NCBI GenBank assembly: GCA_944393125.1 | Contig: CALXZB010000008.1 | Coordinates: forward strand, 7,528-39,527 | DNA from: an uncultured Clostridia bacterium | GTDB taxonomy: Bacteria; Bacillota; Clostridia; TANB77; CAG-508 | Reading direction: 5' to 3' | DNA length: 32,000 nucleotides | Part shown: piece after piece, positions 1 through 26,855 of the stretch | Layout of the letters: every line of letters starts with the position of its first letter | Numbering within the stretch: the first letter of the stretch is position 1 | Program-made: the position numbers and the translations under genes | The notes under the pieces: generated by a model | Database searches by the model: none | Told to the model about the DNA's origin: nothing | The model's input: only the letters and a program-made list of their open reading frames with translations

Positions 1-3000
1 TAAATAAAAATTAAAACACTGTCAGCAGAAATAATAGCAAAAATATAAAAGGTAAAAAATGTAAGTAGTAAAAAGCTTTTAACTAATAAATAAAAAATGT
101 GGCTTAAGAAAAAAATATATTGAATATTATTTCATAAAATCTTATAAATAATTATTTTAAAATTAAAATAATTAAACAGTTAAAATAAAAAATTTAAAAT
201 AATTACTAAAATAATAAGAAATAAATTTAAAATATTTATAAAAAAATTTTTAATAAATAATATATAAATAAAAAAATTATAAAAAATTATTAAAAAAATA
301 AAATAAAAATATATTTAAAATAAAATATAAAAAATAAAATCATAAAATTAATTATTAAAATAACAAAAATATTAAAATAATTTAATTAATAAAATAAAAA
401 ATATACTAATAAAAAATATAATTAATTAAATAAAAATAAATAATAATTAAGTATAAAGAATTTAAATAAAAATATTAAAAAAATAAAAATTATTTATAAA
501 ATGAAAATAAAATAATAGAAGAAAAGTGGAAATAAATGTATATATTTTAAACAGTAAAGATAGCTAATTTTTTATATAATAAAATAAAAAATTAAAAAAA
601 CAAATAAATGAAAATTAAAACACTGTCAGCAGAAACAATAACAAAAACATAAAAGGTAAAAAATGTAAGTATTAAAAAATTACAAAAGAATAAATAAAAT
701 AATTAATATATTAAAAAATAAATTAAAAAGCATATTCAAAATAATTTCGTAAATAATTATTTTAAAATAAAAAAATATATAAATGTGAAATAATAAAAAA
801 TAAAAAATTTTATTATAAACACAATTTAAAAAATATTAAATAATAAAAATAAAAAATTAATAAATAATTGTTTTAATAATTAAAATAATTATTTATTAAA
901 AATAGAAAATAAAATTGTAAAAAATAAAATCAAAATAATTTTAGAAAATAAATATAAAAAATATAAAAATTAAAAATATTAAGAATAAAAAAATTAGAAG
1001 ATAAATTAAAATTAATTATTAAAAAAATAAAAAATATTAAAATAAATTAATTAAAAAAGTATATATTAATAAAAAAATATATTAATTAAATAAAAATAAT
1101 AATTAAAATAAAAATAAATAATAATTAATTATTATTTATAAAGAATTTAAATAAAAATATTAAAAAAATAAAAATTATTTATAAAATGAAAATAAAACAG
1201 TAGAAGAAAGATGGAAATAAATGTATATATTTTAAACAGTAAAGAATAACTAATTTTTTATATAATAAAATAAAAAATTAAAAAAACAAATAAATAAAAA
1301 TTAAAACACTGTCAGCAGAAATAATAGCAAAAATATAAAAGGTAAAAAATGTAAGTAGTAAAAAGCTTTTAACTAATAAATAAAAAATGTGGCTTAAGAA
1401 AAAAATATCTTGAATATTATTTCATAAAATCTTATAAATAATTATTTTAAAATTAAAATAATTAAACAGTTAAAATAAAACATAAATAATAACTAAAGAA
1501 ATAAAAAATAAAAATACAGTTAAAATAAAAAATTAAAAATAATTACTAAAATGATAAGAAATGAATTTAAAATATTTATAAAAAAATTTTTAATAAATAA
1601 TATATAAATAAAAAAATTATAAAAATTTATTTAAAAAATAAAATAAAAATATATTTAAAATAAAATATAAAAATATAAAAAAATAAAATCATAAAATTAA
1701 TTATTAAAATAATAAAAAAATATTAAAATAATTTAATTAATAAAATAAAAAATATATTAATAAAAAATATAATTAATTAAATAAAAATAATAACTAATGT
1801 AAAATAAATAATAAATTAATTATAAATAATTTAGACAAGAATATTTAAAAAATAAAAATTATTTATAAAATAAAAATAAAATAGTAGAAAAAAATATGGA
1901 AATAAATGTATATATTTTTAAACAAAAAGAATAATTATTTTTTTAAAAATAAAATAAAAAATAAAACAAACTAATAGATAAAAATTTAAATATAACTAGC
2001 AGAAGGAATAACAAAAGAATAAAAGGTAAAAAATGTAAGGAACAAAAAACTTAACTATAAAAAAATATATATTAAATATTATTTTATAAAATTTTATAAA
2101 TAATTATTTTTGAAATTAAAAAATTATATATTTAAAATAAAAGTAAAAATAATTACTAAAGAAATAAAAAATAAATTTTAAATATTTATAAAAAAATATT
2201 CTAAATAAAATAATTTAATTAATAAAATAATTTTTAAAATTAAATAATATATTTATAAAAATAAATAATAATTAAAAAAATTTTTAATAATAAAAATAAA
2301 AAAATTAATAAATAATTATTTATTAAAAATAAAAAGTAAAATAGTAAAAAATAAATTCAAAATAATAAAAAAATAAATATAAAAACTAAAAATACTAATA
2401 ATTAAAAAATAAAATGATAAAAAATAAGATAAAAAAATTAATTGGCAAAATAAAATTAAAAAATAATTAATATAAAAATAAATAATTATTAATTATAAAG
2501 AATTTAAATAAAATATTTTAAGAATAATATTTATATATATAGTAAAATAATGAGCGAAAAGTGGAAATAAATGTATATGTTTTAAATAATAAATAATTTT
2601 ATATGATAAAATAAAAATTATTAATAATAAGTATTAAAAAATTAAAATCTAGATGACAGAAGTAATAGCAAAAACATAAAAGGTAAAAAATGTAAGCATT
2701 AAAAATTTAAAAATAATAAATAAAATAATATAAAAAAAGAAATGAAATATAGATTTAAAATAATTTTATAAAATAGCAAAAAAATTATTTTAAAATTAAA
2801 ACAATTATTTATTAAAATAAAAAACTAAAAAAAAGATCTAAAATAAATCTTTATAATAATAATAAATATAATTCTAAAAATATAAATAATAATAAAAATT
2901 GGAAAAATAATTTTAAAATTAAAATAATAAAAATATTTTAAATAATAAAAATAATTATAAAATAAAATGATAAATAAAATATTTTAATAAAAAAATAAAT

Positions 3001-3150
3001 AATAAAATTATAAAAAAATAAAAAAATTAATAAATAATTATTTATTAAAAATATAGTAAAAATAAAATTAAAACTAATTATAAAAATAATAAAAATTAAA
3101 AAATATAAAATAATATAAAATAATATAATTAATTTACAAAAATTATATTT
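1..3150. repeat. Ultra-AT-rich non-coding tandem array, at least 5 degenerate units of about 600-690 bp, truncated by the window start
   Basis: The ORF track lists no ORF of 60 aa or more on either strand. A perfectly conserved 21-mer, ataaaaggtaaaaaatgtaag, occurs at 45, 649, 1335, 2019 and 2676. A 17-mer, tggaaataaatgtatat, occurs at 527, 1212, 1897 and 2562. Positions 1-190 match 1291-1480 with 1 mismatch. The + strand is strongly A-rich. Confidence 0.9.
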
Positions 3151-3167
3151 TATTTTGAAAGGAGGTC

Positions 3168-3189
3168 ATGATAATTTAAAAATTATCAT
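3168..3189 (+). promoter_or_regulatory. Perfect 22-bp palindrome (atgataattt aa aaattatcat) between a strong SD and the ATG of the downstream ORF; possible operator or SD-bridging hairpin
   Basis: The arms 3168-3177 and 3180-3189 are exact reverse complements. GGAGG lies at 3161-3165 and the ATG at 3198. Confidence 0.5.
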
Positions 3190-3197
3190 AAAAAGAT

Positions 3198-3884
3198 ATG
3201 GAAATTGACAATGAAATAAATATAGAAAAAAATAATTTTTTAAATAATATTATAGGACAAACCATAAATAATGCAATTGATATAGGATTAAAAGCAGTAT
3301 TGCCAGATTTAATAGAAAATCAAGTAATAGAAATTAAAGATGCTCTTTTGAAAAATGGACTGAAAGCAGGAGTAGAAACTGCAGTCAATTCAGCAATTGA
3401 TTTTGGAAAAAGTATTTCAGGAATTTTTACAGGAAATTTTGAGAATATGACACAAGTAAGAATAGCTGTTTCTGAGGGAGGAATATTAGAAACAATTTCA
3501 GATGTTTTAGATAAAATAGCAAATAAAACATATGAAGCTGGATATATAAATGAAACAGTTAATACATTAATAAAAAATGGCAAAGATATAATTTTAGATA
3601 ATATATCAAATAATATTAGAAAACAATTAGACGAACAGACAGATTTAATTGAAAACTTAAATAGATACATAGACAATTGGAAAGAAAGTTATAATAATCA
3701 AAACTTTATTGAAATGGAAAAAGAATATAACAAAATTGAAGAAAACATTGATAAAATTATACCTTTAGAAAATATAATAAAAGAAATAAGAGAAATAGAA
3801 AGCATACATAATTTAATAAAAAACAATGGTCAAAATTTTGAAATATCTGATCTGGAAAAAAATTTAGCAAAGAATTTAGTATAA
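3198..3884 (+). CDS. Hypothetical protein, predicted helical/coiled-coil, no recognised family
   Basis: 228-aa ORF with an ATG start. It has coding-like composition (Asn/Ile/Glu/Lys-rich) and no TM segment or signal peptide. No motif was recognised. Confidence 0.6.
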   Translation: MEIDNEINIEKNNFLNNIIGQTINNAIDIGLKAVLPDLIENQVIEIKDALLKNGLKAGVETAVNSAIDFGKSISGIFTGNFENMTQVRIAVSEGGILETISDVLDKIANKTYEAGYINETVNTLIKNGKDIILDNISNNIRKQLDEQTDLIENLNRYIDNWKESYNNQNFIEMEKEYNKIEENIDKIIPLENIIKEIREIESIHNLIKNNGQNFEISDLEKNLAKNLV

Positions 3885-3962
3885 TAATTTTTATTAAATA
3901 TCAATACCAAACTCTTAATTCGATATTGATATTTAATAATACATATTAAGTAATTATATATA

Positions 3963-4325
3963 TTAACTATTTAGATTTTCATTTTCTTCTTTAATTTTTT
4001 TACAAAAATCATTTGAACACATTACAATATGATAAATAAAATCAGAAGTTGATTGTGAGCTTACAGTTAATATATTATTAATTTTTTTTATAGTTTCATT
4101 ATTAGAATTTTTTCCAAACAATAAATAGTCAGCTGAAATACCAGTATATTTTACCACTTTTTTTAGAGTTTTTGCACTTAATGAGCGTTCTCCTCTTTCT
4201 ATTTGTCCTAAAAAAGAGTCTGTTATATCTATTTTTTCTGAAAATTCTTCTCTTGTCATATGCATGCCTTCTCTAATACTACGTAACCTTTCACCAATAT
4301 CAATATCTTCTTTATTAAATTGCAT
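3963..4325 (-). CDS. XRE-family helix-turn-helix transcriptional regulator
   Basis: The N-terminal segment IGERLRSIREGMHMTREEFSEKIDITDSFLGQIERGERSLSAKTLKKVVKYTGISADYLLFG is a canonical HTH_3/Cro-C1 fold pattern. The SD gaggtga (reverse complement of 4331-4337) precedes the ATG. Confidence 0.88.
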   Translation of the reverse strand: MQFNKEDIDIGERLRSIREGMHMTREEFSEKIDITDSFLGQIERGERSLSAKTLKKVVKYTGISADYLLFGKNSNNETIKKINNILTVSSQSTSDFIYHIVMCSNDFCKKIKEENENLNS

Positions 4326-4569: not shown

Positions 4570-7023
4570 ATGGAAGAGAGACAAGAGGAAAATATAATTA
4601 AAAGAGATATTGAACAAGAAATGAGAACGGCATATATTGATTACGCAATGAGTGTAATTGTTTCTAGAGCATTACCAGATGTAAGAGATGGATTAAAACC
4701 TGTGCATAGAAGAATTTTATATGCAATGCATGAAGATGGTATTACTTCAGATAAACCATATAGGAAATGTGCTAATACTGTAGGTTCTGTACTTGGAAGA
4801 TATCATCCACATGGTGATGCATCAGTATATGATGCAATGGTAAGAATGGCACAAGACTTTTCAATGAGATATATGTTAATAGATGGGCATGGAAATTTTG
4901 GATCAATTGATGGTGATGGTGCAGCTGCAATGAGGTATACAGAAGCAAGAATGTCAAAAATAGCGGAACAAATGCTGGTTGATATAGAAAAAAATACTGT
5001 AGATTTTATGCCAAATTATGATGATAGATTACAAGAACCAACTGTATTACCAGCTAAAATACCAACATTATTAGTAAATGGATCATCAGGAATAGCTGTT
5101 GGTATGGCAACAAATATACCACCTCATAATTTAAGAGAAATAATTGATGGTATAATTAAAATAATTGATGATGATAATGTAACAGATGATGATTTATTAC
5201 AAATAATTAAAGGACCGGATTTTCCAACAGAAGGATTGATTTTAGGAAGAGAAGGAATAAAGGAAGCATATAAAACAGGAAAAGGCAAAATAATAATGAG
5301 AGCTGAAGCTGAAATAGAAGAAATGAGTGGTAATAAACAAAGAATAATAGTTTCTTCATTACCATATCAAGTAAATAAAGCTAGGCTAATTGAAAATATT
5401 GCCAAATTAACTAGGGAGAAAAGGATTGAAGGAATTTCAGAATTACGTGATGAATCAGATAGAAATGATAAAGTAAGAATTGTTATGGAACTTAAGAGAG
5501 ATGCGAATCCACAAATAGTATTAAACCAATTATATAAAAATACACAAATGCAAGATACTTTTGGTGTAATAATGTTAGCTTTAGTTGATGGAGAACCTAA
5601 AATTTTAACTTTAAGACAATGTTTAGACTGTTACATAGATCATAGAAAAAATGTAATTTTACGTAGAACAAAATTTGAATTAGATAAAGCTTTAGCAAGA
5701 GCACATATATTAGAAGGATTAAGAATTGCAATAGATAATATAGATGAAGTAATTTCAATAATTCGTAATTCATATGATGATGCTAAAGAAAGATTAATTG
5801 AAAGATTTGGATTAACTGATATACAAGCTCAAGCTATACTAGATATGAGATTAAAAACATTATCTGGTTTACAACGTGAAAAAATCGAAGAAGAATATAA
5901 ACAATTAATGGAATTAATAGAACATTTAAGAGCGATATTAAATAGTGAAAAATTAGTTTTTGATATTATAAAAGAAGAACTTATCGAAATTAAAGATAAA
6001 TTTGGTGATGATAGAAAAACAAAAATAGTAGCAGCAGAAGGAGAAATAGATGTTGAAGATTTAATAAAAGAGGAACAATCTGTTATTGCTTTAACACATT
6101 TTGGATATATTAAGAGAATGCCAATTGATACATATAGAAGTCAAAAACGTGGAGGAAAGGGAATTACAGGTATTGCAACTAGAGAAGAAGATTTTGTAAA
6201 GCAGATATTTACAGCATCAACTCATGATACAATTTTATTCTTTACAAATAAGGGAAAACTATATAAATTAAGAGGATATGAAGTTCCTGAAGCAGGAAGA
6301 ATGGCAAGAGGAACTGCAATTGTCAACTTGCTAAGTTTAGATGCAGGTGAAAAAGTTTCTGCAGTAATACCAATTCAGAATTTTGCTGAAGGTAAATATT
6401 TATTAATGGCAACTAAAAAAGGTTTAATAAAGAAAACAGCTTTAGCAGAATATAATTCAGCACGAAAGACAGGACTTCAAGGTATAACACTAAAAGAAGA
6501 TGATGAATTAATTGCAGTTAGATTAACAGATGGAGAAGACAATGTAGTCCTAGTAACAAGGAATGGTATGTGTATAACATTTGATGAAAAAGATGTACGT
6601 CCAATTGGAAGAGTTTCTCAAGGTGTTATTGGAATAAGAATTGATGAAAATGATGAAGTTATTGGAATGGAATCAATTATATCAGGTGGAAAAGCAACAT
6701 TATTAGCTATTACGGAAAATGGATTTGGAAAAAGGACGGAACTTGATGAATACAGAGTGCAAATAAGAGGAGGAAAGGGTGTTGTAACATATAAAATTAC
6801 ACCTAAAACAGGAAAATTAGTAGGAGTTAGAATTGCTACTGATGATGAAGATGTAATGCTAATAACAGATACTGGAACAATAATTAGACTAAAAGTAAAA
6901 GATATTAGTATTTTAGGAAGACCTACACAAGGTGTTACATTAATGAGAACAACAGACGGAGGAAAAGTAGTAAGTATAGAAACATTAACTCCTGAAATTG
7001 CTGATACAGATGCAGCTGAATAA
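4570..7023 (+). CDS. gyrA: DNA gyrase subunit A
   Basis: The N-terminus carries YAMSVIVSRALPDVRDGLKPVHRRILYAM, with the catalytic Tyr in AAMRYTEARM. The QRDR-like segment HPHGDASVYDAMVRMAQ is present. The GyrA-box YRSQKRGGKGITG in the C-terminal beta-pinwheel separates GyrA from ParC. Confidence 0.98.
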   Translation: MEERQEENIIKRDIEQEMRTAYIDYAMSVIVSRALPDVRDGLKPVHRRILYAMHEDGITSDKPYRKCANTVGSVLGRYHPHGDASVYDAMVRMAQDFSMRYMLIDGHGNFGSIDGDGAAAMRYTEARMSKIAEQMLVDIEKNTVDFMPNYDDRLQEPTVLPAKIPTLLVNGSSGIAVGMATNIPPHNLREIIDGIIKIIDDDNVTDDDLLQIIKGPDFPTEGLILGREGIKEAYKTGKGKIIMRAEAEIEEMSGNKQRIIVSSLPYQVNKARLIENIAKLTREKRIEGISELRDESDRNDKVRIVMELKRDANPQIVLNQLYKNTQMQDTFGVIMLALVDGEPKILTLRQCLDCYIDHRKNVILRRTKFELDKALARAHILEGLRIAIDNIDEVISIIRNSYDDAKERLIERFGLTDIQAQAILDMRLKTLSGLQREKIEEEYKQLMELIEHLRAILNSEKLVFDIIKEELIEIKDKFGDDRKTKIVAAEGEIDVEDLIKEEQSVIALTHFGYIKRMPIDTYRSQKRGGKGITGIATREEDFVKQIFTASTHDTILFFTNKGKLYKLRGYEVPEAGRMARGTAIVNLLSLDAGEKVSAVIPIQNFAEGKYLLMATKKGLIKKTALAEYNSARKTGLQGITLKEDDELIAVRLTDGEDNVVLVTRNGMCITFDEKDVRPIGRVSQGVIGIRIDENDEVIGMESIISGGKATLLAITENGFGKRTELDEYRVQIRGGKGVVTYKITPKTGKLVGVRIATDDEDVMLITDTGTIIRLKVKDISILGRPTQGVTLMRTTDGGKVVSIETLTPEIADTDAAE

Positions 7024-7112: not shown

Positions 7113-8123
7113 CTATCTTTTTAAATTAAATCTTAAATCATTTCCGAAAAAATAATAAATATCATAAAAACCAGCAATTCTAGAACCTATTCTTTCTTCA
7201 TAATTTTTAAAAATATTATTTATGCTTAAATTAGTAGATATTATTGTTTTGGTAACTTTATTATTTAGATTAAGCAAACGAGTATTTAAAATTGTAAATA
7301 ATTCACTTAGTTTCATACTATTTAAGCACTCTGTACCTAAATCATCAATTATAAGTAAATCAGATTCTAATACATCTTTATAAAAATTATCCTGTATAGA
7401 AGTTTTATATTTATTCATTTTATTATCAATAACTGTCTCCAATAATACTGGAGCTGTTTGATATAAAACATTTTTTCCTTTTTTAATTAATTCATTTGCA
7501 ATACAATTACTCATAAATGTTTTTCCAAGCCCAGTATTTCCTGTAAATAGCAAATTATGAGTCTGAGGATTATCAAAATTTTCAACAAATTCTATACATT
7601 TTTCTTTTATATTTATAATATTTTGACGTGGTGAAATGTTTATTTTATATTTTTCTAGTTCAATTTTGTCAGAAAAAAGATTTATATTAAATACATCAAA
7701 ATTTTCTTTTGAAAGATTTGATATATTTGATTTGTTATATGATATATCTAATAGCTTTTGCTTTAAACAAGGGCATAAAGTGGAAGCAGAGTTTTCACTT
7801 TTTATATATCCCGTATCCTTGCAAATTTTACATTCATAATTAGGCTGTAGAAAGCTATTATCAAGTTTATATTTTTTTAATAATTCATTTTTTTCTTTTT
7901 TTAATTCTTCAATTTTTGCTTGAAGATTTTCTAAAGAAGCTGAATTACCATTTAATATATTTTTTGCTGTATTAATTGCAAAATTATTTAATTCATTTTC
8001 AATTTCTTGTAAACGAGGATATTTATCAAAAATTTTTTGTTTATGTTCTTCAAAATTCAATTCAGCCCTACGTTTTTTTTGTTCATATTCTAATAACAAT
8101 GTTGATAAAATTTCGTTAGACAT
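7113..8123 (-). CDS. DnaC/DnaI-family replicative helicase loader (AAA+), with an N-terminal Cys-rich zinc module
   Basis: Walker A is FTGNTGLGKTF and Walker B is LLIIDDLGTE. The sensor is ISTN and the Arg-finger region is RIGSRI. The N-terminal CKICKDTGY...CPC resembles the DnaI zinc-binding domain. The start overlaps the upstream gene stop by 8 nt, and an SD aaggag lies inside the upstream gene. Confidence 0.85.
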   Translation of the reverse strand: MSNEILSTLLLEYEQKKRRAELNFEEHKQKIFDKYPRLQEIENELNNFAINTAKNILNGNSASLENLQAKIEELKKEKNELLKKYKLDNSFLQPNYECKICKDTGYIKSENSASTLCPCLKQKLLDISYNKSNISNLSKENFDVFNINLFSDKIELEKYKINISPRQNIINIKEKCIEFVENFDNPQTHNLLFTGNTGLGKTFMSNCIANELIKKGKNVLYQTAPVLLETVIDNKMNKYKTSIQDNFYKDVLESDLLIIDDLGTECLNSMKLSELFTILNTRLLNLNNKVTKTIISTNLSINNIFKNYEERIGSRIAGFYDIYYFFGNDLRFNLKR

Positions 8124-9171
8124 TAATTTCTCCTTTTATATTAAAAAAATCTGAAACAGCAATTTTTGAATCATTTGAATTATTTGTAAATTGTTCAGAA
8201 GAAACTCCTGCATTTGCATATAAAAATGATAAATTATCGTATTGTCTTTGATCAAATGATGCTTTTGTTACTTGTTTTTCTAATTGCTTTATATCCTTCT
8301 TTTGTTTATTTCGTTGCTCTATAAATGCAAGTATTTCATTTGCAGTTTTTAAATTTCTATCATGCCAATCTGTAATTATATTGTTAAAATATTCAAATGT
8401 TGGATTTGACTTGAAAGTAGTTCTTTTTAATGCAATTTCAATTATATTTAAGTCATACCCAAAATCAATTATCCATTTTTCTATATAAGCTTCTTCATAC
8501 TGAGTTAGAGTTTGTTTTCCTAATTTTTTTGCAATAGTTTTCTTAATTTTTACTAATTTTTCCTGTTTTTGATAGTATAGGTCTAAATCATTCCATGTAT
8601 GTATTTTATTATTTCCCCAAGCTTCAGCAACCGTTTGAACATATTTTTTGTGTAAAGCAGAACGACTAAAACAATATTCAAAAAGTGCAATCATAACTTG
8701 ATCATCAAAATTATATTTTGTAAACCATAAATCAATGTCATTATACCAAGAAGGTCCCATAATTCCTTGAAAATAAGCATTATTTATATGATTTATAACT
8801 TTTGCTCTAGCTTTATTTTTTGCAACATCTGCAACTTTTTCGGGTGATGCAGTTAAATTAGGAGTATATAATTTATGAAGAGTGGCTTCTTGTAAATTAG
8901 TCATAATATAACCAGTTTCTTTTTTGGTAATAAATCCATTTTGCTCTAAATAAGTAAGAGAGTCATTTATATCTTTTAGCTGTAATGCTAATTTTTTCGA
9001 CATATCATTCAATTTTATATCTTTTTTATATTTTGATAAAAAAAGCATATATAAATACACTTTAACACTATTGGCAGGCATTTGAGATAAATATTCTGCA
9101 AAAAAGATGTCAGGGACAACTGTTTCAGAGAATAACAAAGGTACTTCTGGATGCTCTAATTTCATTTTCAT
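8116..9171 (-). CDS. DnaD-domain replication initiation protein with B. subtilis DnaB-like architecture (winged-helix N-domain plus two DDBH2 repeats)
   Basis: Two copies of the YxxxIxxxW DDBH2 signature are present: YVQTVAEAW and YFNNIITDW. The SD ggagga (reverse complement of 9173-9178) precedes the ATG at 9171. The gene is translationally coupled to the loader gene downstream. Confidence 0.8.
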   Translation of the reverse strand: MKMKLEHPEVPLLFSETVVPDIFFAEYLSQMPANSVKVYLYMLFLSKYKKDIKLNDMSKKLALQLKDINDSLTYLEQNGFITKKETGYIMTNLQEATLHKLYTPNLTASPEKVADVAKNKARAKVINHINNAYFQGIMGPSWYNDIDLWFTKYNFDDQVMIALFEYCFSRSALHKKYVQTVAEAWGNNKIHTWNDLDLYYQKQEKLVKIKKTIAKKLGKQTLTQYEEAYIEKWIIDFGYDLNIIEIALKRTTFKSNPTFEYFNNIITDWHDRNLKTANEILAFIEQRNKQKKDIKQLEKQVTKASFDQRQYDNLSFLYANAGVSSEQFTNNSNDSKIAVSDFFNIKGEINV

Positions 9172-9189
9172 TCCTCCTTAAAAAGGAAC

Positions 9190-9221
9190 GAACCTAGTTC
9201 AAAAATTAATAAACTAGTTTC
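9190..9221 (-). terminator. Hairpin between the PrgI-like gene and the dnaB-like SD; possible partial terminator or attenuator
   Basis: gaacctagtt (9190-9199) pairs with aactagtttc (9212-9221) over 10 bp with 1 mismatch. On the minus strand it is followed by cgttccttttt and then the SD of the dnaB-like gene. Confidence 0.35.
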
Positions 9222-16579: not shown

Positions 16580-19500
16580 ATGGAGAAAAAAACTAGAAAG
16601 AAAATATTAGTTATACTAATGATAATAACAATATTAGCAACAGACTTTTTAGTACTTAGTACTGGAATAAAAACATATGCATCACAATTAAATAGTGAAA
16701 CAAATAATGAAAATATAGAATTTTCAGTGTATTTTAAAGATGGAGAAAATAGAGTAGACAGTGTGGAAAAAAGCATAAGAACAGATGATTTGAAATTATA
16801 TGCTGAAATAAAAGTGAAAAAAGAAGGTTACTTAAAAGAAGGAACAGTAATAGAACTAGAAAACAATAATTTTAACTTAAAAAGTGAAATATTACCAACA
16901 AATACACACATAAAAAGTATAGAAGGAAACAAAGTTAATTTAAAACAAATAAATAGTGAAGAAACAGTAGAAATAGAATTGGGAATAGAACCAGTTATAA
17001 CAGAAAAAATAGAACCAGAATTTCTTTCACAAACGACAACTGTTAAAATGATAGGAGTATATGTATATTCAAAAGCAGAAGAAGGAATTTCTGTAAGAAC
17101 TGATAAATGGGTTAGTGTAAATTATCAACCAGATGAAGAAACACAAGCAGAAATGGAAACAAAAATAATAACAAACAAAGTTCTTTCAATAGATGGAAAA
17201 AATCAAAGATTAATTCAGCAATTAGTAAGAACGAGAATTGTTGATAATGAATATCCAATTGAAAAAACAATAATAAAAGCTCAAATACCAGAATTAAGTG
17301 GAAATAAACCAGAAGTAGAAGCAATAGAGATAAATAAAGTAACAAAAATAGGTGATATAAAAACAGAAAATGGAACTTTAGAAATAACATTAACAAATGA
17401 AGCTGACTCAAATAATCAAATAAGTTGGAATAAAAATGTTTATGATGAAATTGTTATTTCATACATATATCCAGAAGATGTTGAAGTAGACAAATCAGAA
17501 ATAGTTACAGATGCAGAAATAAAATTATATAATTCTAAAAAATCATATACATTAAATAATAAATTAGCAATAGAAAATGAAGAATCAAATAATGTAATAA
17601 TGGGAAGAACTCAAATTACAACAGAGGAATTATATAAAGGAAAGATATATGCAAATATAGGGGAACAGTATAATACATATACAACAATGATTGTAACAAA
17701 AGCAAATATAGCGGACAAAGTTGAAATAATTGAAGGAGCAGATTACTTTGTAACAGAGGAAAAAGAATTATCCGCAAATACAAAATATATAGAAACAGAA
17801 ATAAATTTAGAACAAATGATGCAAATATTAGGACAAGATGGATGGATTGAAATAAAAAGTGGAGAGACAACAATTACTATAAATAAAGATACACAAGTAA
17901 ATGAAAATGGAGATGTTATAGTAAAATATGTAAATGGTGCAAAAGAATTAAGCATTTCAACAAGTGCACCTGTAAATAAAGGATTATTAAAATTAGAACA
18001 TACAAAGGCAATAATACAAAATGATTATACAAGAATACAATTACAAAAAGTTAATGAATTAAAAACAAAAACTATTACTACAGCAGTATTAGGTGAACAA
18101 AAAATATTGGAAAATTCTGCAGAACCAGCAGTTTTAAAACTAAATGAAACAATGTCAAAAGCAGAATTATCTATTGAAAATAACAAAAAATCATTATCAA
18201 CAACTGAAACAAATGAAATGACATTAGGAGTTACATTAATAACAAATGGAACACAATATGATTTATATAAAAATCCAAAAATAAGCATTAAATTTCCTGA
18301 AGCTGTAGAAAATGTTGAATTAGTAACAGATATAAATAAACAAAATGCAAATGAATTTACAATAAAAAATGGAGGATATAATAAATCAAATAGAACATTA
18401 CAAATAAATTTACAGGGAGAACAAACCTCATATCCAGAATCAGATTTAACACAAAGCTATATACAACTTAATTTAAAAATTTCACTAAATTCATTAGCAA
18501 TAGCTCAAAATGATAAAATAATGATGGCATATACAAATGAAAATGCTATTCAGTATTATAGTGGTACAGACTATGGAGTAACTGAACAAGAAATAGAAAT
18601 ATCAGCACCAAGCCAATTGATAAAAAAATTCAACTTAACTTCAAATGAAAATACTTCATTAACAGATACAGTGTTACAAAAAGTAAAAGAAAATGAAGTA
18701 GGTAAAGAACTTAATTTTGAAATATCACTAATAAATAATAAGGATTCAAATATAAAGAATTTGAAAATATTGGGAAAATTACCAACAACAGATAATGTAA
18801 TATCAGGGCAAGAAGCAAATACATTGGAAACAACTTTAAAAGGAATATCTGCTGGAAATGCTACAGTATATTATACAGAAAATTCCAAAGCAACAGTAGA
18901 TGTAAATAATAAAGAAAATGGATGGTCTACAAATTTAAACTCAAATGCAAAATTATACTTAATACAAGTAGAAGAATTGGAAAGAGGAGCAAATTATACT
19001 GCAAATTTAACAATAGAGCCTAAAGATATTAATGGAAATGAATTATCATATACTCAATATGGAGTTATATATGATACAATTTCAGAAACAGAAGTGAAAG
19101 AAAGCTCAAGAAAAATAGGATTAGCAACTTCTGATGCTGCAACAATAAAAACCGAAATAACAGCACAAGTAGGAGCAGATGTATTAGAAAACGGTGATAC
19201 TGTAAAAGAGGGAGAAGTAATAAAATATACTGTTACAGTTACTAATAATGGTGTAAACACTCTTGAGAATTTACAGTTAAAATTAGACGTGCCAGAAGGA
19301 ACAAGTTATGTAAGACCAATACCTGAAATAGTAGATGAGGATGGAAATATTATACAAGATGGATATGTTTATGCAGATGGATATTATGAAGAAGTGACAG
19401 ATGAAAATCAATTAGAAGAATTAACAAATATATTAATATCACAATTACCAATAAAAGAACCATATACAATAGAATATGAAGTAAGAGTGAATAAGGGAAG

Positions 19501-21979
19501 TGCAAATACTGAAATATTAAATCAATCAGTAGTAATATATGATTCAACAGAGATAGGAAATATTGAATTTAAAAACAGTGTACAAGAAGCTAATGTTAGG
19601 GTAACAATTAAGAGAGCTACAGATGAATCTATTAATTCATATCCTGGAGGAAAAGGATGTTATAAAATATATGTAGAAAATTTGGCAAATGAAACACTAA
19701 ATAATCTTGAAATGAAAGTATTATCAGATAAATTTGTTATAAATAGAGTAGATAAAGTTATAGATGGAAATGAAGTTACAATTTATGAAGAAAATGTTCC
19801 TGAAACTATAATAATTGACGAAATATCAGCAAATTCTAAGGAAACTTTTTATATAGAAGGAACAATTGATAGAGATATCCAAGAAATGCTTATATCAGCA
19901 ATAGTAAAAGATAATTATAAAAATACATATAGATCTAATGAATTAAAAGAAGATCTTCCAAATATAGACGTAGAAATAAATATGTCAAGTAATCGAGATA
20001 AAGAATATATAAAACAAGATGATATCATAGAATATACTATTATAGCTCAAAACATGGAAAATATAGATACAGAAATAGCTATAATAGATGAAATACCAGA
20101 TATTTTACAAATACAATCTGTATATATAAATGAACAACTAAAAAAGCAAACAACTAATGAGGAAGATACAAATACATATGTTGAAACAATTAATAATTAT
20201 ATATATGAAACAACAATATTAGGAGCTAAGGAAACATTTGAAGTAAAAATATTAGCAAAAGTAGGATATGTACCTAGTATGTATCATGGAAAAACTATAA
20301 CTAATAGAGCAGAACTAATGACTTTTAATGTATTAGAAGATTCATCTAAAGTTATTACTCATGTATTAAAATCAAATGAAGTTTCAAATGAAAATGTTGA
20401 AAATATTATAAGTGGTATTGCATGGTTTGATGAAAACGAAAATGGAAAACTAGATGCAGGTGAAGAGAGGTTATCAGGTATAGTTGTAAAATTATATGAT
20501 ATTTCAACAAATGATTATGTAAGAGATAGAGAAAGTAATATTATACAAACAATAACTGATAATGATGGGGAATATAATTTTTCTCAAATAAAGGATGGTT
20601 CATATTTAATTGTATTTGAATATGATTCTGAAAAATATGTGTTAACAATAGCTAATGCAGAAAATGTAGATTCATCAATAAGTTCAAAAGCAAGTATTAA
20701 AAAAATTAACTGGGATACATATATAGAAAGAGTTGGTGCTATCGAAATAAACAAATTAGATAGAAATGTTTTTGACATGAATATAGGCTTGAAAGAAAAT
20801 ATAGGTGAAACACCATCAGAAGAACAACCAGGAATAGAAGAAATTCCAGTAGAACCAGATGAACCAGAAAATCCAGATGATCCTAATGAACCTGATATTC
20901 CTGAAGAACCAGATGATGACAATACAGGAGATAATTCAGAAGATGAAGAAAAACCAGGAGTAACTCAAGAAACAAAATTAATAAGTGGATATATATGGTT
21001 AGATTCTAATGCAAATGGAAGAAAAGATAATTCTGAAAACTATTTGTCAGGAATAAAAGTTAGAGTATATGATGTTTTAAATAAAGAATACATAAAAAAT
21101 GATAATGGAGAAATATTAGTTATTTTGACAGATGATAATGGCAAATATGAAGTAAGTAATATAAATAAAGGATCATATATTTTGGTATTTGAATACAATG
21201 CAGAAGAATTTAAATTAGGCTCACAAAACTCAAATATAGTGGCAAAAGAATTAAATATAAATGGACAAAATATTACTGCAATAGTTACAGATACAATAAA
21301 AGTTCAAGATAATATATACAATGTAAATGTAGGATTACAAGAAAATTTAAAATTTGATTTAGAATTAGATAAATATATAAGTAAAATAATTGTTCAAACA
21401 AGTAAAGAAACAAAAACATATAATTACAATGAAAAAACATTAGGAAAAGTGGAAATTCACAGAAAACAAGTACAAGGAGCAAATGTTGTATTAGAATATA
21501 CAATAAAAATTAAAAATAATGGTGAAATAGCTGGATATGCTAAAAACATAGTAGACTATTTACCAAGTGGATTAATGTTCAGTTCAGAATTAAATAAGGA
21601 TTGGTATATATCTGGAAATTACTTATACACAAAGAGCTTAGAAAATACTGTAATAAATCCAGGAGAAGAAAAAGAAGTTAAATTAATTTTAACCAAAACA
21701 ATGACAAGCGAAAATGTAGGACTAATAAACAATACAGCAGAAATATATCAAGACTATAATCAATTTGGAGAATCAGACATAGATTCAACTCCTAATAATC
21801 AAAATCAAAATGAAGATGATTTTGGATCAACAGATGTAATTATACAAATTGCAACAGGAGGAAGCATAATAGCATATATAGTACTTATTTTCATAAATAT
21901 TGTATTGATATTTATAGCATTAAAAATTATGATGATGAATGAAATCATAAAAGTAAAAACAAAAGAGGAAAGGAGGTAA
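16580..21979 (+). CDS. Giant (1799 aa) cell-surface protein: signal/TM N-terminus, DUF11-type repeat domains, two SdrD-B/CnaB-like domains split by an acidic Pro-rich linker, C-terminal DUF11-like module and TM anchor
   Basis: The N-terminus is KKILVILMIITILATDFLVLSTG. The DUF11 signature is GDTVKEGEVIKYTVTVTNNGVNTLENLQLKLDVPEGTSYV. The SdrD-B signatures are GIAWFDENENGKLDAGEERLSGIVVKLYD...TDNDGEYNF and GYIWLDSNANGRKDNSENYLSGIKVRVYD...TDDNGKYEV. The tail is DSTPNNQNQNEDDFGSTDVIIQIATGG followed by a hydrophobic helix and a basic end. The gene starts 23 nt after the VanW gene. Confidence 0.9.
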   Translation: MEKKTRKKILVILMIITILATDFLVLSTGIKTYASQLNSETNNENIEFSVYFKDGENRVDSVEKSIRTDDLKLYAEIKVKKEGYLKEGTVIELENNNFNLKSEILPTNTHIKSIEGNKVNLKQINSEETVEIELGIEPVITEKIEPEFLSQTTTVKMIGVYVYSKAEEGISVRTDKWVSVNYQPDEETQAEMETKIITNKVLSIDGKNQRLIQQLVRTRIVDNEYPIEKTIIKAQIPELSGNKPEVEAIEINKVTKIGDIKTENGTLEITLTNEADSNNQISWNKNVYDEIVISYIYPEDVEVDKSEIVTDAEIKLYNSKKSYTLNNKLAIENEESNNVIMGRTQITTEELYKGKIYANIGEQYNTYTTMIVTKANIADKVEIIEGADYFVTEEKELSANTKYIETEINLEQMMQILGQDGWIEIKSGETTITINKDTQVNENGDVIVKYVNGAKELSISTSAPVNKGLLKLEHTKAIIQNDYTRIQLQKVNELKTKTITTAVLGEQKILENSAEPAVLKLNETMSKAELSIENNKKSLSTTETNEMTLGVTLITNGTQYDLYKNPKISIKFPEAVENVELVTDINKQNANEFTIKNGGYNKSNRTLQINLQGEQTSYPESDLTQSYIQLNLKISLNSLAIAQNDKIMMAYTNENAIQYYSGTDYGVTEQEIEISAPSQLIKKFNLTSNENTSLTDTVLQKVKENEVGKELNFEISLINNKDSNIKNLKILGKLPTTDNVISGQEANTLETTLKGISAGNATVYYTENSKATVDVNNKENGWSTNLNSNAKLYLIQVEELERGANYTANLTIEPKDINGNELSYTQYGVIYDTISETEVKESSRKIGLATSDAATIKTEITAQVGADVLENGDTVKEGEVIKYTVTVTNNGVNTLENLQLKLDVPEGTSYVRPIPEIVDEDGNIIQDGYVYADGYYEEVTDENQLEELTNILISQLPIKEPYTIEYEVRVNKGSANTEILNQSVVIYDSTEIGNIEFKNSVQEANVRVTIKRATDESINSYPGGKGCYKIYVENLANETLNNLEMKVLSDKFVINRVDKVIDGNEVTIYEENVPETIIIDEISANSKETFYIEGTIDRDIQEMLISAIVKDNYKNTYRSNELKEDLPNIDVEINMSSNRDKEYIKQDDIIEYTIIAQNMENIDTEIAIIDEIPDILQIQSVYINEQLKKQTTNEEDTNTYVETINNYIYETTILGAKETFEVKILAKVGYVPSMYHGKTITNRAELMTFNVLEDSSKVITHVLKSNEVSNENVENIISGIAWFDENENGKLDAGEERLSGIVVKLYDISTNDYVRDRESNIIQTITDNDGEYNFSQIKDGSYLIVFEYDSEKYVLTIANAENVDSSISSKASIKKINWDTYIERVGAIEINKLDRNVFDMNIGLKENIGETPSEEQPGIEEIPVEPDEPENPDDPNEPDIPEEPDDDNTGDNSEDEEKPGVTQETKLISGYIWLDSNANGRKDNSENYLSGIKVRVYDVLNKEYIKNDNGEILVILTDDNGKYEVSNINKGSYILVFEYNAEEFKLGSQNSNIVAKELNINGQNITAIVTDTIKVQDNIYNVNVGLQENLKFDLELDKYISKIIVQTSKETKTYNYNEKTLGKVEIHRKQVQGANVVLEYTIKIKNNGEIAGYAKNIVDYLPSGLMFSSELNKDWYISGNYLYTKSLENTVINPGEEKEVKLILTKTMTSENVGLINNTAEIYQDYNQFGESDIDSTPNNQNQNEDDFGSTDVIIQIATGGSIIAYIVLIFINIVLIFIALKIMMMNEIIKVKTKEERR

Positions 21980-21985
21980 GAACAC

Positions 21986-24900
21986 ATGAAAAAGAAAATG
22001 AAAACAATAATATTGTTAATATTAATTATAGGCATTGTAGTAGGTGTAATATTTACAAGTAATAATAAGTCATATGCGGCACCAGATGGAACATGGCAAT
22101 CTAGTGAATGTAGTGTAGATCTTGGAGGCTATATAAATAGTGGTGGAAATAGCTGGATGACATCATATTGGAATACATATTGTTTACAACATGGAACAGC
22201 ATTAAGAGATAATATGTCACACTATATAAAATATAAAGTTGAAATAAGAGGAAACACAGCAACATTTTATAATCCGAATAAAAGTGTAAAAGGGACTGTT
22301 GTAACAGAAGAAAACAATGTATTAGCTGCAATTTTAACTCCTAATGATTATATACCATATTCTGTATTACAGCAAAGTAGTAGAGTTCATTATGATTGGT
22401 GGTCTATTGGAATGTATGTGGATCATTCACACGCTGTTCACCCTACTAAAACATATGAAGATTATAGTAGAGCACAATTAGCTTTATATTCTTATTTGGG
22501 AAAATGGAGTAGTGCATGTTCTAGCAAAGGTGTATCACCAGGATGGTCTTATGGTGCGAGTGGAATAGGAGATTATTCTGAAGCAGAGGCAGGAGTATGG
22601 TTTTGTGAAGATTTAGCAAGAGCAGGAACATTTAATGTAGATTTATATTATTTAGAAGCAGGTTCTTACCAAAATCTTCTAGTAGCTAATCCATATAGAG
22701 CAACTGAAGGCAAACCAGTTGAAACTACTTCTGTATCAGTAAAGAAAGTATGGAATGGTGATAATAACAATGCTTATTATAATAGAAAGCCAATAACTGT
22801 ACAATTAAAAGCAAATGGAGCAGTAAAGCAAACACAAACTTTAAATGATTCAAATGGATGGAGTTATACATTTAGAGATTTGCCTACAAATGTAACATAT
22901 ACAGTATCAGAAGTATCTGTTCCAGGATATACAACCAATATAACAGGAAATGCTCAAAGTGGTTTTACAATAACAAACACATTACAAAGAACAAGTGTAA
23001 CAGTCCGAAAAACATGGAATGATGAAAACAATAGAGATGGAAAAAGACCAAGTTCTGTAAAAGTAACATTATATGAAAATGGAGTAGCTACTAGCACAAC
23101 AGCGACACTGAGTGCATCAAATGGTTGGGCATATACATTTTCAAATTTACCTAAATATAAAAATGGATCCCAAGTAAAATATACTATACAAGAAACTGTA
23201 CCAACAGGATACACAGCAACATATTCTGGAAATGGAACAACAAATGTATCAATAACAAACACCCATATACCAGAAAAAACACAAGTAACAGTAACCAAAA
23301 CATGGGAAGATGCATACAATGGAGTTGAGGACTTTGATGAAATAAGACCAAGTTCAATAACTATGACTTTATATGGAAATGGAGTAAAAGTAACAAAAGA
23401 TGGATTCGGAAATGCAATAACAAATCCAATAACAATTAGTGGAACATCAAAAAATTGGACAGGAACATTTACAAACTTGTATAAATATGAAAATGGAAAA
23501 GAAATAGTATATACTGTAAAAGAATCAGGAATTCCAGAAGGATATCAAAGCACTGCCAGTGGAAAAACAACTGTTGTAAATACACATGTACCACATTATG
23601 ATGGATATATTGAAATATCAGGAAAAGCATGGCTAGATGGAGAAGGAGGAAAACAAAACAGTATAAATGGTACATTTGATAAAGATACTGATCCAAATTC
23701 AACTGACCAAGGATTAGCAAATATAAAAGTAACATTAAAAGATGAGAGCGGAAATACTATAAAATCAACATATACAGATGAAAATGGTAATTTTACAAGA
23801 AGTGACTATGGATATACAGATGAAAATGGAAATTATACAATAAGAGTAAATTATGATAATAGTGTAAATGCTTATAAATTATATGAAGATGCTGCAACAA
23901 TAGAAGCAAAGATAAAAACAGCATATGTAGAATTTGAATATGATGGAATGTTATATACAACAGTAGCAAATGCAGATAGTGGAGAAAATACTTCTAAAGC
24001 AATAGAAAATGAATCAACAAGAAATACTTTTGATAATAATCATTCAGTAGTAACTTCAGAAACAAATCCTAACAGTTGGAGTGATAGAAATATTACAGCA
24101 AGTACAAAAGGAGTAATAGAATTTGATGATACATATAAACATATAACAAATGGAACATCAAAAGAAAATATAAAATATTGTGATGGAAACGGTAACTATG
24201 TAAGAACTCAATATAATGATTCAACTAAAGTTACAACAGGAAAACACACATGTACAAATTGTGAAGGAACAGGACATTCAAAAGAAGAATGGCAATATGA
24301 AGTAGAAGTAATGAAAATACAAAATGTAAATATAGGACTATTTAAAAGAGAACAACCAGATGTAGCTATATTCTCAGACTTAACTAAAGTTGAAGTAGAA
24401 ATGAATAATCAAAAATATACATATTTATATGGGGTAAGAGGTAGCGATAAAAATAATGTAGGATTACAGGCAAAATTTGAAAATAAAGATACATATACAT
24501 ATAGAAGACCAGTAAATCCAGCTGATATAGCATATATCAATGAACCAACAACTCAAAGCGGAATGAGTGTAAAAGTAACATATGAAATAAAAGTAGCTAA
24601 CTTATCATCAACATTAGTAACAACAATTCACAGTATTTCAAATTATTTTGACTCAGAATATACAATGCTAAACAGTAGCGGATGGAAAATAACAGAGGAA
24701 GATGGATTTAATAAAGCAGTATACAATGGTGATTTAGACATAACAGTAAATCGAGGAACTGAAGTCTTGGTAACAGAAGTAACATACAGTGTTAGCTCAG
24801 AAGCAATATCAAATCTATTGAATGAAGAGGCAACATTAAATAATGCGGTAGAAATAGAATCTTACTCAACTACTTATGGAGAAAGTACTTTATATGCAGA

Positions 24901-26665: not shown

Positions 26666-26682
26666 GATAAAAATATAGAAAA

Positions 26683-26727
26683 ATGGAGAAAGAAAATGTA
26701 AAAATTATTCTTTTTCCATTTTTTTTC
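26683..26727 (+). terminator. Rho-independent terminator after the thioester adhesin gene
   Basis: atggagaaagaa (26683-26694) pairs with ttctttttccat (26708-26719) with 1 mismatch, followed by T8 at 26720-26727. Confidence 0.75.
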
Positions 26728-26767
26728 GACTTTTTTAATAAAATTTTACATAATATAGCTAAAAAAC

Positions 26768-26796
26768 TTGTTAAAAATGTCAAAATGTGGTATAGT
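26768..26796 (+). promoter_or_regulatory. Extended -10 promoter for the second giant paralog
   Basis: -35 ttgtta at 26768-26773, a 17-nt spacer including TGg at 26788-26790, and -10 tatagt at 26791-26796. Confidence 0.6.
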
Positions 26797-26855
26797 ATAA
26801 AGAGGAGAAAATACCTAAAAATATGTATTAAGCAATAATATGGAGGTAAAAAATA

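Follow-up and report, generated by a model that had tools for sequence, protein, structure and literature searches.

Tandem repeats in bacterial chromosomes

In a survey of 119 bacterial genomes, only 32 of 1067 satellites were longer than 1.5 kb, a share given as 2.7%, and those with long units mostly had unit lengths that were multiples of 3 nucleotides (nt) and lay inside genes (Subirana and Messeguer, 2019; PMC6749651). Here we analyze a stretch of 32,000 nt from an uncultured Clostridia bacterium (hereafter the window; GenBank assembly GCA_944393125.1, contig CALXZB010000008.1, positions 7,528 to 39,527), the first 3150 nt of which form a tandem array upstream of a gene for a conserved protein, X228. 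The closest category is that of prokaryotic satellites, for which the array qualifies in having several head-to-tail copies of one unit, and with which it shares diverging units and a copy number that changes by duplication. Unlike the surveyed satellites, it exceeds 3 kb, is non-coding, has units of ~650 nt and a neutral base composition, and combines a position kept across species with conserved short cores. A first-pass annotation, made from the letters alone, had remarked that bacteria rarely keep such DNA, and the survey supports that view.

Eukaryotic minisatellites and satellites provide a second comparison, since the array likewise keeps a short core within fast-evolving units and displays concerted evolution and a higher-order repeat, the first unit resembling the third. 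It differs from minisatellites in being bacterial, confined to a single locus and present in only 4–7 copies. The array is a real and fairly unusual bacterial satellite, and its interest lies in two constrained motifs per unit and in the persistent filler between them. Compact AT-biased genomes are expected to delete useless DNA, yet here 3–4 kb of neutral tandem DNA persists in several species, and a 14-nt motif that stays unchanged amid saturated synonymous sites makes a clear case for asking what retains such DNA. Functional cores would represent a cis-element arrangement that is unusual for a site close to the origin and the gyrase genes; should they have no function, the locus is a clean bacterial example of duplication, concerted evolution and molecular drive.

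Structure of the array

The five tandem units (u1 to u5; Table 1) are in register and head to tail, with pairwise identities of 60–94%. Their approximate starts are spaced by 604, 686, 684 and 657 nt, as the first-pass annotation had read them (at least five units of 604–686 bp), and its suspicion that the array outruns the window is confirmed by a scaffold of the same strain (L001) with at least one further partial unit. The unit middles sort into types, u1 and u3 versus u2, and the 94% identity of u1 to u3 over 224 nt points to the recent duplication of a two-unit block. Outside the cores, u1 and u4 retain a near-random 60% ungapped identity. A G or C is kept in at least four of the five units at 12 alignment columns only, and these cluster in three places: CTGTCAGCAG..AGC, core 1 and core 2.

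No open reading frame (ORF) of at least 60 amino acids (aa) is found before position 3198. Eight ORFs of 20–29 aa overlap 1–3190, none recurring between units, and no reading frame in the array is conserved across species. The period-3 Fourier signal per base is 0.03–0.27 in the array, compared with 0.3–4.3 in X228 and 5.5–18 in gyrA, and tblastn of the neighboring proteins against the array returned low-complexity noise only. With neither an ORF of this length nor a period-3 signal, the array is non-coding, in agreement with the earlier reading.

Table 1. Positions of the array, its units and cores, and adjacent features. Positions refer to the window unless a locus label is given.
Feature	Position	Strand	Remarks
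Non-coding tandem array, five units	1..3150	+	Cut by window edge; extends upstream to the VirB4-like stop codon
Unit u1, type A	1..604	+	94% identical to u3 in its first 224 nt
Unit u2, type B	605..1290	+	
Unit u3, type A	1291..1974	+	
Unit u4	1975..2631	+	
Unit u5, last	2632..3197	+	True X228 start codon (3198) at the expected next core 2 position
Core 1, AAAGGTAAAAAATGTAAG	48-65, 652-669, 1338-1355, 2022-2039, 2679-2696	+	Shine-Dalgarno-like GG, 6 nt, ATG-TAA
Core 2, RTGGAAATAAATG	526-538, 1211-1223, 1896-1908, 2561-2573	+	
AATTTTTTATATAATA patch, ~40 nt past core 2	566..581, also ~1252-1267	+	Read from sequence
Strong Shine-Dalgarno GGAGG (3161-3165) and three-codon mini-ORF ATGATAATTTAA (3168-3179)	3161..3189	+	Directly upstream of X228 start
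X228, conserved 228-aa all-helical protein	3198..3884	+	Next gene 3' of the array in every relative
Xre-type helix-turn-helix regulator	3963..4325	-	Missing from some array-carrying relatives
gyrA	4570..7023	+	
ACGCGCGAAAATCAAAAATAA...TTTTGATT...TATAAT module	L036:~9885-9960, L037:~9900-9960, L037:1520-1580 and 1655-1700, L001:~355-400		

Neutral composition of the filler

Positions 1–3150 contain 1957 A, 967 T, 142 G and 84 C, i.e., 62% A, 31% T and frequencies of.045 for G and.027 for C, or 7.2% G+C as against 26% in the remainder of the window. The AT skew of the region is +0.31 to +0.37 (+0.34 for the array), and the + strand is 67% purine. The first estimate of ~8% G+C with A in great excess over T was therefore close. 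These extremes are not a designed property: the + strand genes of the window (3198–26665) have, at their four-fold degenerate sites, A.69, T.26, G.03 and C.02 (G+C.05). Because the array matches these sites, its G+C content and A skew require no special explanation; the bulk sits at the neutral mutational equilibrium of the genome, and a stretch of 5–7% G+C need not be exotic where neutral G+C is ~5%. Four-fold sites of the minus-strand genes, read on the + strand, have A.49 and T.43, and the array skew falls between a replication-only estimate (+0.26) and that of the + strand genes (+0.45). The genome is thus under extreme AT mutation pressure, with an A-over-T bias that has both a replication-strand and a coding-strand component.

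The filler is also unconstrained in rate. Among strains with identical GyrA, 7.5% of columns vary in the array (1.6 kb aligned, with many indels), compared with 1.0% in gyrA and 1.9% in X228; in the better-aligned part, 2000–3150, the figure is about 4% (a tally from listed positions). The bulk evolves at roughly the synonymous rate.

Conserved cores

Both cores share the pattern GG-N6-ATG, i.e., GGWAA-N4-TGKAA, with fixed spacing. In every unit of the window, core 1 reads on the + strand as a Shine-Dalgarno (SD)-like AAGG, six bases, ATG and then TAA, a start-stop. Core 2 reads as an SD-like GGA, ATG and GAA, and such a start is used by 5 of the 12 genes in the window. The conserved pieces are 12–18 nt long and set 125–560 nt apart; the cores are not palindromic and contain no inverted repeat.

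The core 14-mer GGTAAAAAATGTAA occurs five times in the window, where 0.16 occurrences are expected by chance, and is carried unchanged by 15 of the 17 units with retained G-containing motifs (window, L036, L039, L045 and L091, the labels denoting loci of related genomes). Both units without it are in L091. It is always on the + strand and has no other occurrence in the loci examined. In L044, GGCAAAAAATGGAA takes its place, and core 2 in the relatives reads CTGGAAAT(G/A)AATGG. None of the sites that vary among identical-GyrA strains falls inside a core. How long have these motifs been kept? Four-fold identity in gyrA between the window and L036, L045 and L091 is 0.54, 0.58 and 0.51, respectively, which is saturated for this composition. 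That the 14-mer stays intact while these sites are saturated implies that the cores are under constraint, or that a strong homogenizing drive acts on the cores alone, and they probably serve some function. Random drift of the core motifs, which the first-pass annotation had named as grounds for abandoning its view, is contradicted by conservation across species whose neutral sites are saturated. The comparison with related genomes that it had proposed gave a divided answer: the cores and the chromosomal slot are conserved, and the bulk of the unit cannot be aligned between species.

A scan of a genome collection with a 19-mer core gave 23 single chance matches, in unrelated taxa only, and a scan of viral contigs with a 16-mer likewise gave nothing but single chance matches. 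Compared by eye with the cores, none of the sigma-54, sigma-H, WalR, CtsR, Noc, dif and Ter consensus sequences fitted.

Distribution in related genomes

The array is located between a VirB4-like ATPase gene of the CD1110/Mbov_0397 family (upstream, outside the window) and X228, in the dnaN-recF-gyrB...gyrA block close to the replication origin. L001, in which X228 is identical, has the order recF, gyrB, split VirB4-like genes, array, X228, helix-turn-helix (HTH) gene and gyrA, and its array begins directly at the stop codon of the VirB4-like gene. Species with ~95%-identical GyrA carry an array in the same slot (L036, L037/L038/L039, L045 and L044). L036 has four units of ~600 nt, without a gap from VirB4 to X228, and L044 four units of ~715 nt. 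In the more distant L091 (GyrA 87% and X228 48% identical), four units of 0.9–1.07 kb follow a decaying ParA-like ORF. Homologous arrays in other species have 2–4 units, in which the cores persist within unalignable bulk, and the closest array-bearing relatives are animal-gut metagenome assemblies.

In distant relatives (GyrA 77–87%: L069, L063, L118, L106, L113, L123, L061 and L103) the slot is filled by a gene for a ParA/MinD-like ATPase of 300–425 aa. The order is recF, gyrB, VirB4N, VirB4, ParA/MinD-like ATPase, X228 and gyrA, with genes that abut or overlap and gaps of 13–105 nt among VirB4, the ParA-like gene and X228. In close relatives from the human gut (L048, L054, L058 and L062; GyrA 94–95%), VirB4 abuts X228, and both the ParA-like gene and the array are absent. 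Arrays are thus found where the ParA-like gene is gone (the clade of the window) or decaying (L091 and L124), not where it is intact. The L091 ORF has lost its Walker A motif and has ~8% G+C. Its frame (L091:3082-4143) is nevertheless open for 353 codons at 6–10% G+C, and represents either a pseudogene of very recent origin or a coding sequence made up almost only of A/T codons. In L124, the ParA-like gene is frameshifted and followed by different repeats, namely A-rich microsatellites of 12 and 15 nt and two ~397-nt units with another G-containing core, TTAAGGAATAAAGGRAGAAGAA (L124:7145-7250, 7296-7770 and 7800-7930). The ParA-X228 slot appears prone to independent expansions.

Such expansion extends beyond this slot. 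The dnaN-recF spacer (L001:1-360, L037:1190-1700) holds an A-rich tandem repeat of ~7% G+C with a unit of ~182 nt, within which the L001 contig ends, and A-rich tandem growth of spacers seems a general habit of these genomes. In some relatives, a module of the form ACGCGCGAAAATCAAAAATAA...TTTTGATT...TATAAT is present upstream of both recF and X228 (Table 1) and may serve the two as a shared operator and promoter; in the window, X228 is not preceded by this module. The split VirB4 genes are preceded by a perfect match to the sigma-70 consensus, TTGACA-17-TATAAT (L036:3901-3929, L001:~3950-3980), and in L001 the repeated motifs TGTCGAA/TGCTCGAA, which resemble Spo0A boxes, lie ahead of it.

Origin of the units

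Three observations bear on where the units came from. Core 2 matches the first 12 nt of X228 in the sister lineages L058 and L124 (ATGGAAATAAAT); ~40 nt past core 2 the units carry AATTTTTTAWATAATA, which resembles the codons for NNFLN in X228 (AATAATTTTTTAAAT) at the same offset from the ATG; and the expected sixth core 2 position in the window is the true X228 start, so that the phase of the repeat runs into the ATG. The 12-nt identity, the further patch and the phase together suggest that a segment with the X228 start in it was duplicated in tandem, and the array is probably a product of duplication and decay in the ParA/MinD-like slot. The first-pass annotation had listed, among findings that would refute it, homologous loci exposing the array as a decayed remnant of a known element or coding region; the slot and the copied X228 start suggest as much, and statistical proof of it was not obtained.

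The resemblance to X228 is confined to its first ~80 nt (patches ATGGAAATAAAT and NNFLN). That the units are decayed copies of the entire gene was considered and rejected, as local DNA alignments scored like shuffled controls, tblastn gave low-complexity matches only, purine/pyrimidine-coded alignments and diagonal correlations stayed at noise level, and blastn matches at word size 7 were not collinear. The P-loop codons of the ParA-like gene were likewise rejected as a source of core 1: GGTGAAAAAAATGTTGGAAAAACA in L103 is similar, with a score no better than that of random array segments. Comparison of the units with VirB4, gyrA, gyrB, the HTH gene and PDDEXK showed no homology.

A putative leader of X228

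What, then, might the cores do? The function of the array is unproven. Our best guess, held tentatively and at less than even confidence, is that this is a genuine non-coding satellite of some lineages, in which the cores are cis-acting signals in a long transcribed leader of X228. The array would have arisen by repeated tandem duplication of the X228-start segment, in the slot that in more distant relatives holds a ParA/MinD-like gene translationally coupled to X228, and a + strand transcript would probably run through it, making it a long leader or spacer. Transcription is probable because in those relatives VirB4, the ParA-like gene and X228, the distal gene of the cluster, are packed in an operon-like manner behind a consensus promoter and because terminator-like sites are absent from the window array; the cores, moreover, invariably share the strand of the genes on either side. 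The AT skew of the array, intermediate between the replication-only estimate and the + strand gene value, belongs to the same transcription context. On that strand they could act in cis as translation-initiation-type sites that load ribosomes, core 1 as an ATG-TAA start-stop. Alternatively, within the same leader, they might be the targets of a factor that recognizes the X228 start region as well.

ATG-stop elements are known as single copies in short bacterial leaders. The array resembles start-stop or upstream mini-ORF leaders in having AAGG-N6-ATG-TAA in every unit on the + strand, a likeness of sequence. It departs from the known cases in carrying one such element per 600–700 nt over a spacer of at least 3 kb, and in conserving the whole 14-mer rather than just the SD and ATG.

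Several points weigh against a leader. Transcription of the array is something that we infer from gene context. The SD-like parts of the cores (AGGT and GGA) are weaker than the GGAGG-type sites of the window genes, and the peptides that would be encoded after core 2 show no conservation. Invariance extends over the entire 14-mer, A-rich spacer included, which suits sequence-specific recognition by a protein or nucleic acid better than it suits a generic ribosome site; a protein that reads this sequence on DNA or RNA could account for core invariance at least as well. The array is missing from close relatives (L048, L054 and L058), so any function is dispensable or lineage-specific. Other intergenic regions of these genomes also contain A-rich tandem repeats, which points to a general tendency to expand spacers, and there is no statistical support for the units being homologous to all of X228 or to the ParA-like gene.

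A less committed view, which we regard as doubtful yet worth stating, is that the array is a functional multi-site element in which the 14-mer GGTAAAAAATGTAA and the X228-start-like motif are recognition sites for a trans-acting protein or the ribosome. If true, a multi-site element spaced by neutral filler and repeated 4–7 times next to the origin would be a new kind of bacterial cis-element array. It might be a centromere-like or titration platform, or a leader with many start-stops that controls X228 and gyrA, evolved in either case from the remains of a ParA-like gene.

Competing explanations

The cores could instead be double-stranded DNA sites for a partition adaptor, nucleoid protein or regulator, with a centromere-like or titration role near oriC, which we consider unlikely. 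Centromeres that double as the operator of an adjacent gene are an established theme (R1 parC, TP228 parH). Like these and F sopC, the array repeats a short motif beside a ParA-type slot and overlaps the start of a neighboring gene, and such a platform would accommodate both the invariance of the 14-mer with its spacer and the GGWAA-N4-TGKAA arrangement common to both cores, near the origin and in or directly after the slot of a ParA/MinD-like ATPase gene. Plasmid and chromosomal centromeres differ, however, in that the sites of the array stand hundreds of nt apart in neutral filler (125–560 nt) rather than being closely iterated, and lack inverted repeats. No parS site (up to 3 mismatches) was found in the array, neither a ParB-like nor any other DNA-binding partner came to light, and X228 has no fold match. 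The clade of the window has lost the ParA-like gene at this locus yet keeps the array; more generally, arrays accompany a decayed or absent ParA-like gene and not an intact one. Binding to DNA would also leave the strict + strand orientation unexplained.

Equally unlikely in our estimation is that the array is non-functional debris, a spacer grown by slippage or unequal crossing-over after loss of the ParA-like gene and since tolerated. The cores would then be kept by molecular drive, either because re-amplification favors core-keeping units or because function is confined to the last unit, which serves as template for new ones. Several observations are consistent with this: the bulk has the neutral equilibrium composition and changes at the synonymous rate, sister lineages do without the array, L124 has different repeats in the same slot, other spacers of the same genomes carry A-rich tandem repeats, and the likeness of u1 to u3 argues for ongoing duplication. 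It is harder to reconcile with units that are near-random outside the cores, such as u1 and u4, and still have 100% identical cores. The same 14-mer is found in L091 despite the low identity of X228 there, and gene conversion limited to patches of 14–18 nt is implausible. Bacteria, moreover, normally delete unused DNA, yet arrays of 2.5–4 kb persist in several species.

Small transcription units, with one small RNA made per unit, are improbable. Each L036 unit does have a promoter-like site (9/12) ~105 nt past core 1, and TTGAAT-17-TATAAA can be read from the sequence of u1 and u3 at ~120 and 1410. Such sites are, however, no commoner than in shuffled sequence, and no terminators accompany them in the window array. 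Rfam 15 gave no match at E up to 1 in window 1–3200 or in the arrays of L036, L091, L044 and L045, RNAalifold predicted 0 conserved base pairs on either strand across 15 units from 5 loci (4 species), and a strand that is two-thirds purine has little capacity to fold.

A purely physical element (curved, easily melted or supercoil-absorbing DNA, or an origin unwinding element) is still less probable. At 7% G+C, the array should be among the most easily melted DNA of the chromosome, and it lies between gyrB and gyrA near oriC. Curvature, one of the roles floated in the first-pass annotation, is without support, since a spectral test of five arrays detected no phasing of A-tracts or TA steps at 10–11 bp above shuffled controls; the other roles floated there (a centromere-like platform, tiny transcription units and recombination cassettes) remain candidates only. 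No DnaA box (up to 1 mismatch) occurs in 1–3150, and the cumulative GC skew climbs steadily across the window, which places the origin elsewhere. The composition is that of the neutral equilibrium, and conserved G-containing cores would go unexplained.

At the lower end, it is very unlikely that the T-rich strand carries a tandem series of genes for small hydrophobic peptides, akin to a type I toxin-antitoxin or the long direct repeats (LDR) of Escherichia coli. The E. coli LDR unit is ~0.5 kb, tandem and intergenic. The array is similar in its tandem units of 0.5–0.7 kb, and in L036 minus-strand ORFs of 50–58 aa, rich in Phe, Leu and Ile, cross core 1. Yet frame, length and stop positions differ between species (window, L037/L039 and L045 versus L036), the open stretch of that frame in the window is only 17–35 codons, the TTG starts lack an SD, and there is no period-3 signal; T-rich DNA yields such ORFs by composition alone. 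Unlike LDR, the array has no conserved small ORF on either strand and no predicted antisense RNA structure, and this reading is largely refuted.

An assembly artefact or collapsed repeat is just as hard to credit. Ten metagenome contigs with identical GyrA, listed from ten assemblies, all stop at 0–1.6 kb upstream of X228 or barely within the gene, and for eight the end lies in the array. Runs of N interrupt the arrays of L001 (100 N) and L037, and one metagenome-assembled genome (MAG) has a chimeric-looking contig end: in L039:1-153 (GCA_017409455.1, end of contig JAFQSS010000018.1), an inverted 3' fragment of VirB4 adjoins the array, probably a chimera caused by the repeat. On the other hand, the same units recur in the same order in several assemblies from different samples, and the homologous arrays of L036 and L091 are spanned without gaps from gene to gene. 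The repeat is real and present in many samples, which answers the concern raised in the first-pass annotation that it might be an assembly artefact. Real doubt attaches to copy number alone: because short-read assemblies break at the array, the count in the window (at least five) is not secure. Nearly all short-read assemblies of these organisms are interrupted here, with the result that gyrB and gyrA are separated in their MAGs.

Finally, a CRISPR array is dismissed, as it had been at the outset, by units of 604–686 nt, conserved pieces of 12–18 nt and intervening material that is related from unit to unit, and an integron cassette array by cores that are not inverted repeats and by neighbors (VirB4-like, X228, HTH, gyrA) that include no integrase. 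The initial exclusion of ribosomal or transfer RNA genes, an insertion sequence and a prophage holds up as well.

X228 and neighboring genes

The gene downstream of the array belongs to a family with more than 2000 homologs, one of which (~70% identical) comes from a MAG that NCBI names ‘Clostridia bacterium’. X228 matches no family in Pfam, NCBIfam or PHROG and no PDB sequence. Its all-helical AlphaFold model (mean predicted local distance difference test score 71) matched no fold and has no recognizable DNA-binding fold. In the window, X228 starts at an ATG that lacks its own SD. The mini-ORF ATGATAATTTAA lies inside a 22-nt palindrome, ATGATAATTTAAAAATTATCAT, which ends 9 nt before this ATG, an arrangement that could allow translational coupling or a hairpin-controlled start.

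Beyond X228, the window encodes the Xre-type HTH regulator, gyrA, dnaI-like and dnaB-like genes, a VirD4/TraD-like gene, three transfer RNAs and very large surface-protein genes. Remnants of a type IV secretion or conjugation system are interleaved with gyrB, gyrA, dnaB and dnaI (window 7113–12105 and the upstream flank in L001/L036). They include the split VirB4-like genes, a VirD4/TraD-like protein of 423 aa and genes of 94, 290 and 105 aa without an assigned role. Their order is kept across the whole clade, and they are therefore not a recent insertion of a mobile element. Further downstream, 16580–26665 is taken up by a pair of very large ORFs on the + strand, of 1799 and 1559 aa, and another open frame runs off the window at 32000. 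A homolog of the 1799-aa ORF carries SdrD_B-type repeats, and the large ORFs of 16580–32000 are probably cell-surface adhesins.

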